Part shown: positions 39-7,832 of the stretch, one piece after another
Layout of the letters: each line of letters begins with the position of its first letter
Numbering within the stretch: position 1 is the stretch's first letter
Virus record (IMG/VR): IMGVR_UViG_2698536471_000020
Coordinates: 1-9,675 of that record
Length of the DNA stretch: 9,675 bases
Strand: one strand, 5' to 3'
DNA from: a virus
Taxonomy: Duplodnaviria; Heunggongvirae; Uroviricota; Caudoviricetes
The notes under the pieces: generated by a model
What the model was told of the DNA's origin: nothing
The model's input: the letters and a program-made list of their open reading frames with translations, nothing else
The model's database searches: none
Program-made: the position numbers and the translations under genes

Positions 39-253
39 TTTTTTGTAAAGAATCTGTCACGCTAAAAGATGTCGAACAAAAATTAACCACAACCATCATC
101 TTTTTTGCATCAACCACATTAAAAACAACAGGTTACACACATGATGATGATGACGATAAAATCACAAAAATGCGCTTTTTTCCGCGCCGCCCGCCCCGTG
201 TTCATACCCACCCCACCAGGAGGACCCGCAAAAAAGGCGGCTGGTGCCGCCTT
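39..253. repeat. Intergenic module copy A (homologous to 2575-2790); includes the capsid-gene terminator
   Basis: Co-linear shared blocks with copy B: ttttttgtaaa, tcgaaca vs tcgacac, triplet run (ATG)4 at 141-152 vs GTG/ATG run at 2675-2689, aaaaatgcgc, tttttccgcgcc, ccgccccgtg, ccaccaggag, A-tract plus GC hairpin. Weaker similarity may extend to position 1 (window edge). Confidence 0.6.
230..253 (-). terminator. Rho-independent terminator after the protease-capsid gene
   Basis: Minus strand reads AA GGCGGC acca GCCGCC TTTTTT G (stems at 236-241 and 246-251), a few nt after the stop codon at 258-260. Confidence 0.7.
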
Positions 254-257
254 GTTG

Positions 258-2147
258 TCAGAGTGAATCTGTCCCGCCTGATTTGACCATACCGCGATAA
301 TCCAGAGCTGCCACACCTGCATCAATACGGACTTTCCAGGCCACGCCGTCAACGATAAAACCTTCCTGCTGTTCAAGGTAAGGCTCGTCATTGCCATCAA
401 GATAAGCCACCTCGATTGTGTCCGTTCCCTGTGCGGAAAGCATGTACCATTGTTTTTCGCTGATATCATCAAGGCGGGGATCGACGATGATATCAAGTAG
501 CTTGTGGTACGGGTTAAAGATCCCGCTGTTTTTATCAGCCCCGAAAGGTGCGGTTGAGTTAATCATCTGCAACGCGCGATCTTCCAGTGCTGCCGGAACT
601 AAAAGGAATTTAGGCGCAATATTCAGCACTTCGCCATTTTTGTCCTTCTGTGTGCGCATCAGGTGACGTGCTGCACTAAGTCCCGGTGTTGTCAGTCCTG
701 CTTCAATCAGGTTGCTGTGTTTTTTGTCAAACAGCGTTATTCCGTCAGAAAGTTTTACGTTGCCTGTAAGCACCAGATTAACCAGATTTCCCACCGTTCT
801 TGATGCTGCACGGCCCATAGCCATTGGCACCGTTGATAACTGATCAAGGTCATCATTGATTATCGCCTGGCGGGTAATGCTGAAAATATTCCCGTAAGTA
901 GCCAGCGCGATGGGTTCACCGCGATCGCTGGTGGTGATGTATTTATATTCTGCCCCTTCCGGAACTTTGTTTAACGTTGAGAAGCCATTCATACCAACGC
1001 GGCGGGCTTCCCGGAAGTTTGAAAGGGAACCTTTTTTCGTCCACTGGCGGAATGTTTCGCCGCTGTGCTCCCAGCCTGCAAGCACTGATTTTTCAGCGCC
1101 ACCAGCAAGGATATCGGTAAAATCGCTGCTGCTGTGGGTGAATGCCGCGTTTACTATCTGCGAGCGTGTGCTGTAGCTGCCCGTGCTTATACCACGATGG
1201 GTTAATGATGCCTGTGCCATATCGAAAAGGCTCATCATGGCGTAAGGATTACCGCGTTCGGCCCGTTCGTGACCAAGACGCGCATTAAGCCCCTGACGCA
1301 TGGCATCGCCAGTTATATTGCCGTTATCCGTGTACGCGTAGTAAAGATTTGCGGGGGTGGTTTTGTTTGTTGGCGTTGATTCTTTACCCATAGCGAGTAA
1401 AAGGCGTTCGCGTGCATTCTCAACGCTACATTCTGAATCCGCAAGACAACTTATAGCCAGGTCGTTATATCTTCCGTTGAAGGTGCCAAACAATTCACGG
1501 ATGCCGTTAAGTCGTTCCTGTTCGCCACTGCCAGTTTTCTGGCTGATCATGCTTTTAATTTTTTCCGGCATATTTGAAAAATCTCCGATTCGTTTTGATT
1601 CAATTCGGGCCATTGCTGTAATCGCGGGTATAACCTCATCTGCGAAACCGTTAGCCTTACACTCATTGCCATCCATCCAGGTTTCCGCCTCCATCATGGA
1701 GGTGATTTCCTGTTTGCTCCTGCCCGTTCTTCCGGCATAGGTTTCTGCCATCGTGTCGCCCAGCTTGTCCATCAGATCAGCAAAGCGGCGAACGTCGCCC
1801 GACACTCCGGCAGTAACACCACGGGGGGCATGTATCATCATCATCGCGTTTTCAGGCATAACGATATGATCTCCACACATGGCAATAAACGAGGCCATAG
1901 AAGCCGCCATGCCTTCAATGTGTACGATTTTTTTTGCCGGATGATTTTTCAGAGCGTTATAGATAGCCAGCCCTTCAAAGATGTCGCCACCAGGTGAATG
2001 GATGCGAAGATGGATTTCAGACGCATTACCACACGCGTTGATCTCGTCAGTAAGTGCCGATGCTTTTACACCGTACCCGCCGATCTCGTCATAAATGCGC
2101 ACATAGACAACATCTGCCATAGCCTTAATGGAAAACCATGTTTTCAT
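258..2147 (-). CDS. Prohead protease (ClpP/S14-like) fused to a scaffold-like linker and a major capsid protein domain (HK97-type, inferred)
   Basis: 629-aa ORF. N-terminal ~190 aa carries ClpP-type signatures (GMAASMAS serine motif, MMMIHAPRG histidine motif). The C-terminal ~300 aa reads as a capsid-like domain by composition and position, not by a specific motif. Start overlaps the upstream small ORF stop (ATGA). Confidence 0.75.
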   Translation of the reverse strand: MKTWFSIKAMADVVYVRIYDEIGGYGVKASALTDEINACGNASEIHLRIHSPGGDIFEGLAIYNALKNHPAKKIVHIEGMAASMASFIAMCGDHIVMPENAMMMIHAPRGVTAGVSGDVRRFADLMDKLGDTMAETYAGRTGRSKQEITSMMEAETWMDGNECKANGFADEVIPAITAMARIESKRIGDFSNMPEKIKSMISQKTGSGEQERLNGIRELFGTFNGRYNDLAISCLADSECSVENARERLLLAMGKESTPTNKTTPANLYYAYTDNGNITGDAMRQGLNARLGHERAERGNPYAMMSLFDMAQASLTHRGISTGSYSTRSQIVNAAFTHSSSDFTDILAGGAEKSVLAGWEHSGETFRQWTKKGSLSNFREARRVGMNGFSTLNKVPEGAEYKYITTSDRGEPIALATYGNIFSITRQAIINDDLDQLSTVPMAMGRAASRTVGNLVNLVLTGNVKLSDGITLFDKKHSNLIEAGLTTPGLSAARHLMRTQKDKNGEVLNIAPKFLLVPAALEDRALQMINSTAPFGADKNSGIFNPYHKLLDIIVDPRLDDISEKQWYMLSAQGTDTIEVAYLDGNDEPYLEQQEGFIVDGVAWKVRIDAGVAALDYRGMVKSGGTDSL

Positions 2148-2371
2148 AGCCAGACCCCTAACGTTGCCCTGTACCAGTATTCAACCGCGCTGCGTGTGAT
2201 TTGTCCTTTCGTGGGTACTGGCATACCCGGGTGATTATCTTTGATGAACTGCTGATAGCGTTCGATCTTCTCCATAGTTCCGGCGTCTATGTGTACCGTG
2301 GCACTTTTATCCGGCTTTCTGGTGTTGTTCTCTGGCATAAATCCGCCTCCGTTTTGATTAACGGGCATCAT
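2144..2371 (-). CDS. Small hypothetical protein, translationally coupled to the protease-capsid gene (more likely start at 2338, giving 64 aa)
   Basis: ORF stop overlaps capsid ATG (ATGA at 2144-2147). The internal ATG at 2336-2338 is preceded by GGAGG at 7-nt spacing, whereas the ATG at 2371 has no clear SD. Function unknown. Confidence 0.45.
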   Translation of the reverse strand: MMPVNQNGGGFMPENNTRKPDKSATVHIDAGTMEKIERYQQFIKDNHPGMPVPTKGQITRSAVEYWYRATLGVWL

Positions 2372-2574: not shown

Positions 2575-2790
2575 TGTTTTTTGTAAATGTTTTCGGGAAC
2601 GTTCCGGTGATGAACAAAAAACAACCTGATTCGACACTAAAAATTTTTATTTCTCAACATATCAATAACTTATAGTGGTGGTGATGGTGCCATAAAAATC
2701 AAAAAATGCGCCTTTTTCCGCGCCCCTCCGCCCCGTGGACAGGCCACCCCCACCAGGAGTACCTACAAAAAAGCCGGATTGCTCCGGCTT
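2575..2790. repeat. Intergenic module copy B (homologous to 39-253); includes the ssb-operon terminator
   Basis: Same block order as copy A; contains triplet run GTGGTGGTGATGGTG (2675-2689), conserved G-rich block on the minus strand (CTCCTGGTGGGGGTGG...CACGGGGCGG...GCGCGGAAAAAGGCGCATTTTTTG) and terminator hairpin 2773-2788. Confidence 0.6.
2767..2790 (-). terminator. Rho-independent terminator after the SSB-like gene
   Basis: Minus strand reads AA GCCGGA gcaa TCCGGC TTTTTT G; SSB-like stop is at 2805-2807. Confidence 0.7.
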
Positions 2791-2804
2791 CTGTCACTCG
2801 TTGC

Positions 2805-3227
2805 TTAAAACGGTATGTTATCCCCGTACGGATCATCGTTACCCGCCTGTTGTTTTGCCCTGTTCAGTGCGTCAGTAGCCTGCCCCTGCTGGCCTTTTTT
2901 GCCGCCCGGTCGCGCCGTTCTCGCACTGATTACGCTGTCTGCGATAACCTGCCAGCCCTGCCGCGTTTCGCCGTTCTGGCCTGTCCACTGGCTTACCTGC
3001 ATGTTACCCGCCACGCTCACCAGCTCGCCTTTGCGGTGTTTTGCCAGTGCGTCGGCCTGTCTGCCAAACGCCAGGACGGATAACCACATCGTAGCCGTTC
3101 CGTCATCTGCCTGGCTGCACGGCAGGGGGACAGCCATACTCGCCATCGTCATTTGTGTGCCCTTGCTGGTGGTCTTTAACTGTGGGTCAGCCACCAGCCG
3201 CCCGTAAGCCGCTATCTGTGCTGTCAT
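2805..3227 (-). CDS. ssb: Single-stranded DNA-binding protein (SSB-like, OB fold with acidic C-terminal tail)
   Basis: 140-aa ORF. The pattern GRLVADPQLK...WLSVLAFGRQADALAKHRKGELVSVAGNMQVSQWTGQNGETRQGWQVIADSV parallels the E. coli SSB OB-fold core; Gly/Gln-rich linker; C-terminus DDPYGDNIPF resembles the canonical SSB DDDIPF tip. ATG overlaps the upstream ORF stop (ATGA). Confidence 0.75.
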   Translation of the reverse strand: MTAQIAAYGRLVADPQLKTTSKGTQMTMASMAVPLPCSQADDGTATMWLSVLAFGRQADALAKHRKGELVSVAGNMQVSQWTGQNGETRQGWQVIADSVISARTARPGGKKGQQGQATDALNRAKQQAGNDDPYGDNIPF

Positions 3228-3550: not shown

Positions 3551-3775
3551 CATCTACCCATCTACCCGAATGCTCATCATGTCAGTAATGGCGCGGCTTT
3601 CAGCGGGTAGATAGCTTTTTTGGCTCCTCTACCTGCCGTCTACCCTGCTACCTGAAACTGATAAAATCAGGTAGAAGAGGTAGAGAGCTTTTATTAGCCT
3701 TCTACCTGGCCCTCTACCCACTTATCATGTTGAATAATATACGTTTATTTCATTCAGGTAGATGGGGTAGAGGGC
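3551..3775. repeat. Iteron array / putative replication origin
   Basis: At least 11 copies of the hexamer GGTAGA/TCTACC in alternating orientation, in pairs: TCTACC at 3553, 3561, 3628, 3639, 3701, 3713; GGTAGA at 3606, 3670, 3679, 3757, 3766; plus near-copy GCTACC at 3647. Longer unit GGTAGAKRGCTTTT three times; AT-rich spacers. Lies directly 3' of the primase-helicase gene. Confidence 0.65.
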
Positions 3776-3787
3776 TTTTACAAAAAA

Positions 3788-6294: not shown

Positions 6295-6496
6295 AAAGCA
6301 TCCCCTGAATATTCGTGTTAATCATTCCGGCACGTTTTGTGATTTCCTGTAATGATTCCCTTGTGGCGACAATTGCTTCATCTGGTAAGTGGTAATTACA
6401 CACCACGCGACCTTTATCCACATTGACCAGTAGCTGCCCTGTGAATTTCTCACGAAACTGAATGCGGTTAAGGTCAGTAAGTGACAGATTAATCAT
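6284..6496 (-). CDS. Hypothetical protein (70 aa from the ATG at 6496), start overlaps the icd-like stop
   Basis: Strong SD AGGAGG 6 nt upstream of the ATG at 6494-6496; ATGATTAA start/stop overlap with the icd-like gene. The track ORF start at 6538 lies inside icd-like and lacks an SD. Confidence 0.5.
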   Translation of the reverse strand: MINLSLTDLNRIQFREKFTGQLLVNVDKGRVVCNYHLPDEAIVATRESLQEITKRAGMINTNIQGMLYAQ

Positions 6497-6677
6497 GGCG
6501 CACCTCCTGACGAATACGGGCGGCAAATACAGCAACACAACCGGACGGGCAACGGTTACGCGCTTCGCGTTCCGTCCAGGCGGTTACGTGGATGATTTGA
6601 TGTTCTGACGCGCCAAAGATGATAAAGCGCCAGAGAAAGGCGGTTTGAGAATGTACAAGGGTAGGGATAGTAGCCAT
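6489..6677 (-). CDS. Icd-like small protein (host cell division inhibitor Icd-like family, 62 aa)
   Basis: It is the C-terminal tail of the 416-codon track ORF, but a strong SD (GAGGAGG) sits 8 nt upstream of the internal ATG at 6675-6677. Sequence MATIPTLVHSQTAFLWRFIIFGASEHQIIHVTAWTEREARNRCPSGCVAVFAARIRQEVRHD fits the remembered Icd-like pattern (F-W-RF ... ERxAR ... FAARxP/Q-E); family assignment is from memory, not a search. Confidence 0.6.
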   Translation of the reverse strand: MATIPTLVHSQTAFLWRFIIFGASEHQIIHVTAWTEREARNRCPSGCVAVFAARIRQEVRHD

Positions 6678-6839
6678 GTTGGCAGCCTCCTCAGTGTGGT
6701 TAAGATAACCGCCACCGGAAACGCCAATTTCGCTGGTGGCGGACTGTACAGGGTTGGCGTAACCGGACACTGAAGAAACCGGCGCGGATTGCTCCGCCCC
6801 CGTACAGCCCACCATTGATAAGGTGTGACTATGCGGCAC

Positions 6840-6861
6840 AAAAAAACACGCGGGGCGCGTG
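6840..6861 (-). terminator. Rho-independent terminator inside the leader upstream of icd-like
   Basis: Minus strand reads CACGCG ccc CGCGTG followed by TTTTTTT (plus-strand A-run 6840-6846, stems 6847-6852 and 6856-6861). Confidence 0.7.
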
Positions 6862-7103
6862 TTATGCGCTTCAGTTTTGCCCAGGACGCCAATCCCGGCA
6901 CCCGTTTTATGAGGTGCGCGGGAATCATAGCCATTTTTGCTGGTGGCGATCAACTGGTTTTTTACACCCGCTTTATTCAGGTTGTGTGAGTCCCGCCCTT
7001 GCGGGTGTGTGGTATGATTTCTCATAGCTACCTCGATACTTTCGCTATCGTTGGTGGTCAGAGGCTGCGAAAGGACGGCAATCCTTTTCAGCCTCGTTTG
7101 CAT

Positions 7104-7207
7104 TGAGTGATAAACACTCAGCTGGATTCCAGTATAATCACTAAGTGGAATCCACTTCAAGCGTTTTGTTTTGGTCTTTTTCGTGTATACTGGATTCCAG
7201 TAATCAC
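7104..7207. promoter_or_regulatory. Divergent promoter/operator region with three TGGAWTCCA palindromes
   Basis: Palindromes CTGGATTCCAG (7122-7132), AAGTGGAATCCACTT (7143-7157), CTGGATTCCAG (7190-7200); extra inverted repeat TGAGTG-ataaa-CACTCA (7104-7120). Minus-strand promoter TTGAAG (7160-7155), 18-nt spacer, TATACT (7136-7131) overlaps the plus-strand TATAAT (7133-7138). Direct repeat CTGGATTCCAGTA(T)AATCAC at 7122-7142 and 7190-7207. Confidence 0.6.
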
Positions 7208-7221
7208 AAAGGGAACCAGAA

Positions 7222-7401
7222 ATGGAAAGAGACCATATCAATAACAAATCACAGAAATTACAGGCTCGCGCCCCGCATGAAGTTGTTGAGGCTATGGAGC
7301 AAGTAAAAGAAACAGGCGAGAGCACTGCGCAATTTATCGTTACAGCCATGCGAGGCGAGATCAAACGCCGCCAGCGCCGTAAGGCCAAAGAATCAGAATA
7401 A
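7222..7401 (+). CDS. Small ribbon-helix-helix-like DNA-binding protein (59 aa; below the ORF-track size cut-off)
   Basis: ATG at 7222 with AGGGA about 8 nt upstream, TAA at 7399-7401. Translation MERDHINNKSQKLQARAPHEVVEAMEQVKETGESTAQFIVTAMRGEIKRRQRRKAKESE has an RHH-like layout (basic strand RAPHEVV, two short helices, basic tail). Sits immediately downstream of the operator palindromes. Confidence 0.45.
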   Translation: MERDHINNKSQKLQARAPHEVVEAMEQVKETGESTAQFIVTAMRGEIKRRQRRKAKESE

Positions 7402-7458
7402 TCACTATCAGCGCCGTGGTGTGAGGTACTACGGCGCATTGCTTTACAGGGCAGTACC

Positions 7459-7686
7459 ATGACTAACAACACACTATCACCAATACAAGACACGCAAACG
7501 CAAGATGATGAAATCATCCGGCAAAGGCAGTCAGAAGCCTGCGCCAGAGTTGAGGAAGAACTAACCAGAACAAAAATACCACCACCAGCGCCGCGCTTAA
7601 TGCCACCAGAAAAATTTGCCCTTGAAGATTTTGTCGAGAAATACCCACGGCGGTTAAAAGCCACTAAAAACCGACCGCCTGGCTGA
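7459..7686 (+). CDS. Hypothetical protein (75 aa), possibly co-transcribed with the RHH-like gene
   Basis: ORF with protein-like charged composition but a weak SD. A hairpin GCGCCGT (7411-7417) / ACGGCGC (7431-7437) lies between it and the RHH gene. Convergent with alpA. Confidence 0.3.
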   Translation: MTNNTLSPIQDTQTQDDEIIRQRQSEACARVEEELTRTKIPPPAPRLMPPEKFALEDFVEKYPRRLKATKNRPPG

Positions 7687-7832
7687 TAGCCTTGTCCACC
7701 AGCTACGGCGGTGCTAAGATTGAAAGCTGCATAAGTCATGAAATAAACTCCTTAGCGGTGCATACGCGCCGCTTCTTTCTTCACGAACAACTACAAACAA
7801 AAACACGGACGGAATTTAAAGAATGAATATTC

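Follow-up and report, generated by a model that had tools for sequence, protein, structure and literature searches.

Two cos sites on a single satellite have been described before. In the PICI EcCICFT073 both sites are functional: each confers transfer by lambda and phi80 when cloned, and deletion of both abolishes transfer of the island (PMC6092414). The second site is dispensable and even slightly inhibitory (PMC6092414); therefore, a second cos need not be adaptive. The other site, cos1, has a PICI-specific cosB, which is read by an Rpp-TerS heterodimer (PMC6739421). Two putative cos sites were also reported for SaPIbov4 (PMC6092414). In S. aureus, SaPIbov5 has its helper's own cos, carries no terS and encodes a homologue of the helper capsid protein (Ccm) (PMC5052747, PMC8569155). 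Finally, in helper-embedded PICIs, a segment of 258 bp at the position of cos is 90% identical between satellite and helper (PMC10111431).

The sub-sites of cos are best understood in lambda. Initiation of packaging requires cosN and cosB and has no need of cosQ, while termination requires cosQ and cosN (PMC4669245). cosQ is a highly conserved 7-bp element, natural variation of which is essentially absent in functional lambda-like phages (PMC4669245); its lambda sequence is given as TTTACGGGTCCTTCC in the text of Fig. S5 of the EcCICFT073 study (PMC6092414). Conserved, too, are the CG dinucleotides beside the nicks; within the cohesive end, positions 7-12 can change freely, and lambda with mismatched cohesive ends is viable (PMC4669245).

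Here we analysed a stretch of 9,675 nucleotides (the window), which contains two similar intergenic modules, copy A (39-253) and copy B (2575-2790), both on the gene-coding minus strand. Very probably, both are lambda-family cos sites in a Gram-negative PICI, and they most likely serve two classes of TerS. Like EcCICFT073, the island is a Gram-negative PICI with int, alpA, a primase gene with ori and a capsid gene. The two also have in common a pair of predicted lambda-type cos sites with conserved cosQ and cosN, each after a terminator T-run and with differing cosB, as well as an orf93 homologue at the right end. However, the cos sites of EcCICFT073 are inverted and flank rppA (144 aa; contig L042, 2556 on the plus and about 3312 on the minus strand), whereas those of the window are direct repeats flanking the capsid gene. 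In EcCICFT073 the terminator hairpin ahead of the capsid gene is the same as that of copy B but is followed by no cos. Moreover, the cosB sequences of the window are near-copies of phage cosB, without rpp or terS, and its cosN and capsid are of the types of another helper group, which has a DUF1441 TerS and a ClpP-MCP fusion in place of Nu1 and E/D.

In its helper cos and capsid homologue the island resembles SaPIbov5 in function, as far as the comparison goes, although SaPIbov5 is a Gram-positive element of unrelated sequence with an HNH-dependent cos and a single characterised cos. The same cassette also occurs in islands lying between helper terS and terL (contigs L019, L027 and L039), as in helper-embedded PICIs; the window island, in contrast, belongs to a chromosomal yejM/tRNA-Pro site and is not within a prophage. 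By its sequence, the island thus appears to be a further variant, in which the capsid gene lies between two directly repeated cos sites, both cosB are of the phage type and Rpp is absent. The strategy is a known one in a new island, since two functional cos sites have already been proven in EcCICFT073 (PMC6092414). The modest and testable twist is the predicted dual helper specificity together with a second site without canonical cosQ. The route to helper exploitation would be unlike that of Rpp: a whole helper cos has apparently been copied, twice, from two specificity classes.

The island and its gene content

All major or substantial genes of the window are on the minus strand. Their order is int, the AlpA-like ORF, the C4 and isrK RNAs, an Icd-like gene, a DUF4222 gene, the primase gene, a 109-aa ORF, the SSB gene, copy B, a 75-aa ORF, the capsid gene and copy A (Table 1). 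Iterons and inverted repeats occupy 3554-3787, 3′ of the primase gene and between it and the next ORF. An iteron-like direct repeat (3667-3693 and 3754-3780, 89% identical) lies at the expected site of a PICI replication origin.

The island recurs in E. coli 2012EL-2448 (contig L001), where it is 98.7% identical over a 3.3-kb query from SSB to copy A and partly different in the early region. There, the counterpart of the AlpA-like ORF shows a weak match to Phage_AlpA (E 0.003, below the cut-off). The 2012EL-2448 island adjoins tRNA-Pro, between yejM and yejO, and a 16-nt direct repeat, TTTTAGTTATACGTTT, with its two copies 10,084 bp apart, bounds an element of about 10.1 kb. This repeat agrees with the att core, TTTGTAGTTATACGTTT..., that has been published for six PICIs at yejM (Fillol-Salom et al. 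2018). The same study characterizes Gram-negative PICIs by an integrase at one end, a specific att site that prophages do not use, genes in a single direction in the order int-alpA-pri/rep, an iteron ori on the 3′ side of the replication gene, and a length of about 8-15 kb. Here we find an integrase at one end, the att site, the order int-alpA-pri, iterons and a length of about 10.1 kb.

The island is not the catalogued EcCI11128, with which it shares the site and the integrase; EcCI11128 has RepA, terS and a capsid module instead. As a separate observation, EcCI11128 (contig L043, from E. coli O111:H- 11128), with the same yejM att, a near-identical integrase and a differing RepA helicase and late module, illustrates modular mosaicism among PICIs at one site.

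The capsid gene encodes a fusion of a ClpP-like prohead protease and a major capsid protein (Pfam Phage_capsid_4, 1.2e-54; CLP_protease, 3.9e-33; phrog_133); helper prophages on contigs L018, L019 and L039 have a homologue with 51-62% identity to it. In Pfam, PHROGs and PDB searches of the window and of the 2012EL-2448 island, no terS, terL, portal or rpp genes were found. Two small ORFs follow the modules, a 93-aa ORF (phrog_1561) downstream of copy A, at the place of terS in phages, and the 75-aa ORF after copy B, and neither has a match in Pfam or PDB or to a terminase or Rpp. These two and the 109-aa ORF were considered as TerS or Rpp candidates and rejected, the searches returning only phage families of unknown function; the 75-aa ORF was also compared with the phage head-tail joining protein and found to be unrelated. 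Of the set that marks capsid-forming PICIs (cf-PICIs), namely terS, terL, portal, protease, capsid and head-tail connector genes of their own, the window and the 2012EL-2448 island have only the protease/capsid fusion and are without terminase and portal.

The C4 and isrK RNAs, located upstream of the Icd-like gene, form an RNA immunity module of the P1 immI type inside a PICI. A 416-aa ORF across this region (6489-7739, minus strand) looks spurious. Its Pfam Phage_ASH match (aa 271-364, about nt 6648-6929) falls exactly over the isrK and C4 RNA genes, and this Pfam family may partly represent translated RNA genes.

Table 1. Features of the two modules and of the island in the window
Feature	Position	Strand	Sequence or description	Basis or remark
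Copy A, terminator hairpin	236-251	-	GGCGGC-ACCA-GCCGCC, intrinsic, after capsid gene	read from sequence
Copy A, T6 run after hairpin	235-230	-		read from sequence
Copy A, cosQ	221-227	-	GGGTCCT, same as lambda cosQ core	alignment with lambda and six phages; pattern search
Copy A, cosN	183-198	-	CG-GGGCGGGCGGCG-CG	homology to lambda ACG-GGGCGGCGACCT-CG
Copy A, triplet run	140-157	-	ATCGTCATCATCATCATG, proposed R3-like TerS site of cosB	aligns with lambda R3 region
Copy A, rest of cosB	64-135	-		conservation over 15 islands; alignment to VT1-Sakai/Stx2_112808, 83-87% identity
Copy A, AT-rich bend region	135-114	-		candidate sub-site
Copy A, R2-like, inverted	100-93	-	GATGATGG	candidate sub-site
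Copy A, R1-like	77-64	-	GTTCGACATCTTTT	candidate sub-site
Copy A, distal end	39-49	-	TTTACAAAAAA	alignment; in A-type phages about 50 nt upstream of terS start codon
Copy B, terminator hairpin	2772-2789	-	AGCCGG-AGCAAT-CCGGCT, intrinsic, after SSB; T6 run ending at 2767	read from sequence
Copy B, cosQ position	2758-2764	-	AGGTACT, two of seven bases off GGGTCCT	alignment, pattern search; spacing unchanged
Copy B, cosN	2719-2735	-	CG-GGGCGGAGGGGCG-CG; 13, not 12, nt between CG flanks	alignment
Copy B, triplet run	2675-2691	-	GGCACCATCACCACCAC, proposed R3-like TerS site, 1720a-02 type	candidate sub-site
Copy B, IHF consensus	2660-2672	+	TATCAATAACTTA, between R3-like and R2-like sites	exact WATCAANNNNTTR match
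Copy B, rest of cosB	2577-2638	-		alignment; candidate sub-sites
Copy B, R2-like, inverted	2638-2628	-	AGTGTCGAATC	candidate sub-site
Copy B, R1-like	2615-2604	-	GTTCATCACCGG	candidate sub-site
Copy B, distal end	2587-2577	-	TTTACAAAAAA	alignment
Integrase	9675-8437	-	at one end of island	
AlpA-like ORF	8027-7833	-	64 aa	by eye from translation
isrK RNA	6841-6917	-	66 bits	Rfam
C4 antisense RNA	6732-6819	-	77.6 bits	Rfam
Primase	5542-3788	-	D5 type	
SSB	2805-3227	-	terminator abuts copy B	Pfam SSB 3.7e-16
75-aa ORF	2144-2371	-	heads capsid operon; phrog_4934 (function unknown)	
Protease/major capsid fusion	258-2147	-	ClpP-like prohead protease; cos site on each side	

The two intergenic modules and their phage counterparts

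Copy B lies 3′ of the SSB stop codon (2807-2805) and 5′ of the 75-aa ORF and the capsid fusion gene, and copy A lies 3′ of the capsid stop codon (260-258). A sequence-only reading of the window had described the two as a duplicated module, and their similarity is real. The local alignment score between them is 74, compared with a mean of 10.6 (sd 1.7, maximum 18) for 500 shuffles of copy B and a maximum of 19 against 138 other segments of the window. In a MAFFT alignment of the two copies the mean column identity is 74%, rising to about 85% in a core of about 80 nt. Past the core, the cosB sides of the two agree in only about 63% of positions, each copy being nearer to a different phage than to the other copy. 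A search of the window for the pattern cosQ-N21-cosN returned exactly two sites, which are copies A and B, where 0.04 would be expected.

As listed in that reading, a terminator hairpin with T6, a G-rich block, a triplet run, an AT-rich stretch and TTTACAAAAAA follow one another in the same order in both copies. The shared terminator holds only in part: each copy has a hairpin with T6, but the stems are unrelated in sequence. The stem of copy A shows no homology in the alignment to the stem of copy B or to phage sequence, and the phage-derived homology begins at the T-run.

The conservation is at the level of nucleotides rather than protein, as had been proposed. The plus-strand ORFs over the copies (141-266 and 2706-3083) differ in frame, and a minus-strand ORF over copy A, annotated in 2012EL-2448, has no counterpart in copy B; a coding function was therefore rejected. 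The sequence-only reading had offered a promoter, a small RNA or a packaging signal, of which the last finds support in cos homology. The notion that the module is a small RNA, or a late promoter or regulatory leader for the capsid operon and the downstream ORF, draws on its intergenic position after a terminator, its nucleotide-level conservation, a short GCGC-N8-GCGC hairpin followed by a T-run and one weak sigma-70-like match on the plus strand of copy A (134-162). No sigma-70-like site common to both copies was found in the scan, however, and when the whole window was scanned with Rfam, nothing credible fell within 39-253 or 2575-2790, even with the cut-off relaxed to E<=1. The hits nearest to the modules, at 2513-2611 on the promoter-distal edge, are at chance level (21-23 bits against gathering thresholds of 50-114). 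Folding of the G-rich region had been suggested as a check; the 83-nt cores of both copies fold like shuffled sequences on both strands (z -1.4 to +0.6). Furthermore, phages have the module well inside the late operon, flanked by Rz and terS, at the place of cos in lambda. A regulatory or RNA function is extremely improbable in the light of these data.

The phage counterparts of the modules point to cos. BLAST of copy B against 50,697 phage records matched 24 records of lambdoid E. coli phages, and the module recurs in related islands as well. In every phage record whose annotation was inspected (mEp460, mEp460_4F5, 1720a-02, VT1-Sakai, Stx2_112808, phi458 and PhiR40_1), it is located between the Rz/lysis genes and the small terminase gene. 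The cos of lambda occupies the same place, between the lysis genes and terS. In an alignment that included the joined ends of lambda, the module is homologous to the cosQ-cosN region, with GGGTCCT-N20-ACG-GGGCGGCGACCT-CG in lambda and GGGTCCT-N21-ACG-GGGCGGGCGGCG-CG in copy A. Lambda cos and the module agree in the cosQ core, the left half of cosN (GGGCGG), the CG flanks and the phage position directly upstream of terS, and also in the predicted sub-site order R3-I1-R2-R1, with a candidate IHF-type site after the first R-like element and a candidate inverted middle R. They differ in the right half of cosN and in all of the cosB sequence, in the gap between cosQ and cosN (21 instead of 20 nt), in the position of the R3-like element, which is about 10-16 nt nearer to cosN, and in the small terminase, which is of the DUF1441 type and not Phage_Nu1.

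Copy A shows three traits of cos known from the literature, namely the 7-bp cosQ element, the CG flanks and variable positions 7-12, and its predicted cosQ and cosN are canonical. The pattern search places GGGTCCT 21 nt ahead of ACGGGGCGG, and its cosN is identical to that of Stx2_112808 and 1720a-02. By homology to lambda, the 12-nt 5′ overhang would correspond to 196-185, with the nick positions being those predicted from lambda. Both ends of a linear phage record, LR595868, which starts with CCACGGGGCGGG and ends with ...GGTGGGGTGGCCTG, fall within the homologous stretch of cosN; circumstantially, this speaks well for the G-rich block as the place of cutting. They lie 5 nt away from the nick expected from lambda, which leaves the exact overhang uncertain. 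A literature search with the end strings for published cohesive ends of this phage group gave unrelated papers only.

On the other side of cosN, candidate R3, R2 (inverted) and R1 elements, assigned by position and conservation only, are common to the islands and the phages. The R-like elements are invariant across 15-20 related islands, where the differences are concentrated in the spacers and the right half of cosN. The triplet run of copy A, for example, is invariant in 15 related islands with varying spacers on its flanks, and is also found in the VT1-Sakai/Stx2 phages and in the helper cos of contig L027. In copy B it differs by one base from that of phage 1720a-02 (...ACCAC instead of ...ACCAG). 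The AT-rich stretch probably corresponds to the IHF bend of cosB. In copy B it includes the sole exact match to WATCAANNNNTTR in the window, which alone is not significant (at least one match in 73 of 200 shuffles) and which is at the position of lambda I1 and conserved in 1720a-02 and mEp460. The IHF match of copy A is imperfect. TTTACAAAAAA appears to mark the end of the phage intergenic region, just ahead of terS. Taken together, each module reads as a complete lambda-family cos region (cosQ, cosN and cosB) directly after an intrinsic terminator.

Several database entries draw 'hypothetical protein' CDSs across these sites, including 11979-12182 in 2012EL-2448, mEp460_059 and 1720a-02 AGR48356.1 (RefSeq, GenBank). 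They are probably spurious.

Two probable helper lineages and their small terminases

The two copies have different nearest relatives among phages. Over about 200 nt, copy A shares 87-90% identity with the cos of Stx2-converting phages and VT1-Sakai, and copy B is 89.9% identical to the cos of 1720a-02 and CP-1639, the value for 1720a-02 referring to positions 30-197 of the module. Between the two copies, identity on the cosB side is 63%, while copy A is 83-87% identical to its phages and copy B at least 80% to its own. In the Rpp class, an rpp gene of 139-154 aa with a winged HTH directly follows a cos whose cosB is unlike phage cosB, whereas both cosB sequences of the window are 87-90% identical to it. 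The comparison suggests strongly that copies A and B are the cos regions of two helper-phage lineages and not a simple duplication. The claim of a duplicated module has to be revised in this respect: the similarity stands, and a recent internal duplication does not.

The small terminases of these phages all belong to DUF1441/phrog_141. Between VT1-Sakai and 1720a-02 the proteins diverge only in the N-terminal third, with 52% identity in residues 1-65 against 95% in the remainder. In lambda, the DNA-binding domain of TerS is located at the N terminus (PMC9026076). Thus, the N-terminal region of TerS co-varies with the type of cosB in these phages, and we infer that the modules carry cosB for two TerS specificity classes. 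Since the island has neither terS nor rpp, it would rely on unmodified helper terminase, and the pair of cos sites most likely lets it be packaged by either class. Likely helpers are phages of the Stx/VT1-Sakai type and of the 1720a-02/CP-1639 type with DUF1441 small terminases. This yields testable predictions on which Stx phages mobilize these islands.

An arrangement of this kind exists in contig L027, where an island bearing both types of cos is embedded in a helper prophage whose own cos is of the copy A type and whose TerS is of the VT1 class. The cassette SSB-cos-capsid-cos-orf93 is present in islands followed by helper terL in contigs L019, L022, L027 and L039, and in L027 it also comes after helper terS. 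The islands of these four contigs are helper-embedded PICIs, and the helper cos and TerS of L027 are of the copy A class.

Comparative depth was drawn from E. coli genomes and IMG/VR. Among 5,426 complete E. coli genomes, 2,343 have cos relatives, and 142, many of them from Shiga-toxin-producing strains, carry the 3.3-kb SSB-cos-capsid-cos cassette at 80% coverage or more. The identification as cos would explain a conserved non-coding repeat in a very common element. A primase search of GTDB genomes for other species gave 3 loci, none of them with this cos core.

Copy B and the predicted packaging of the island

The following course of events would be compatible with the modules being cos sites. 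On induction of a resident lambdoid helper, the island would excise and replicate from its own primase and ori. Helper TerS would then bind cosB of the island and place TerL to nick cosN. Staggered nicks in the G-rich block would leave a 12-nt cohesive end, and packaging would run toward the capsid gene until a downstream cosQ-cosN is met in a sufficiently full head. In this scheme cosB would consist of the R3-like triplet run, the AT-rich IHF-type bend and the R2-like and R1-like elements, ending where phages begin terS. The helpers have genomes of 44.5-47.3 kb. Four island units come to 40.3 kb, or about 86% of a helper genome of 47 kb, which would fit the packaging of tetramers into heads of full size, a proposal also made for EcCICFT073.

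Copy B departs from the canonical sites. Two of the seven cosQ bases are changed, and in its cosN the left half and left flank are as expected while the right CG comes only after 13 nt, which is a partial fit; hence the site may be impaired or non-functional. Given what lambda requires for initiation (cosN, cosB) and for termination (cosQ, cosN), copy B might still start packaging but end it poorly. It is a speculative suggestion that copy B is an initiation-only site which leaves termination to copy A. A fuller version, in which two complete helper-type cos sites with cosB of different TerS classes divide the labour, copy B only starting and the right half of cosN being reshuffled, is offered tentatively and is rather doubtful. 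If true, the island would need no terS or rpp gene of its own, termination at copy A would let runs end only after the capsid gene, and the two types of cosB would widen the range of helpers. [quoted passage not shown]

An exact search of IMG/VR found the copy B variant, with AGGTACT, in 24 contigs, of which 20 have it in the SSB-cos-75aa-capsid cassette, and in none of these matches is it ahead of a terS. Compared with the window, the islands with this cassette show 43-99% identity in the primase and 22-96% in the integrase. For the right half of cosN in copy B, at least 6 alleles are seen in about 20 cassettes that are nearly identical otherwise, and some of these alleles are common to copy B sites, copy A sites and the cos sites of helpers. 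Since mismatched cohesive ends are viable in lambda, we infer that such sharing of right-half alleles would result if packaging ran from one cos to another.

These data bear on the alternative that copy B, or both copies, are relics of recombination derived from cos, without a role in packaging, so that only copy A or neither works. AGGTACT in place of GGGTCCT and the extra base in cosN are in keeping with it, all the more as variation of cosQ is essentially absent in functional lambda-like phages (PMC4669245), and the second cos of EcCICFT073 is not needed for transfer. The cassettes are also about 99% alike, too close to show purifying selection, so that conservation of copy B says little about selection. 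On the other hand, cosB of copy B, with the only exact IHF consensus of the window, is 90% identical to phage cos, and cosQ is not required for initiation in lambda (PMC4669245). The variation in copy B is clustered in the right half of cosN, with alleles common to copy A and to helper sites. Such sharing is expected if the sites are cut and re-annealed, which counts against a relic; we consider it unlikely.

Theoretically, copy B may instead be a decoy, in which an intact cosB with a weak cosQ and cosN titrates helper TerS or terminase and so hampers the helper's packaging without serving that of the island. The conserved cosB next to an altered cosQ and cosN would agree with this, and interference of PICIs with helper packaging at the level of TerS is known (PMC6739421). 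However, the known interference is by a protein (Rpp), which is absent from the island; no precedent for such a DNA decoy was found, and one site per island genome would have to compete with the cos sites of the replicating helper. A decoy is thus very unlikely. For copy B, a relic or decoy nevertheless has to be taken as a serious alternative to a working cos site, the cassettes being too alike to reveal selection.

The right half of the predicted cohesive end is hypervariable (2721-2727 and 185-190 in the window) among the cassettes of 2012EL-2448 and contigs L018-L041, which are otherwise about 99% identical. In two related islands (contigs L016 and L017), one cos follows the SSB terminator and another follows the capsid module. 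The first of them, at the cspD-clpS site, has three cos sites, at about 7037 (+), 9479 (+) and 10400 (-): one of the copy A type after SSB, and two of the lambda type, one inverted, flanking a small terminase gene of the Nu1 family.
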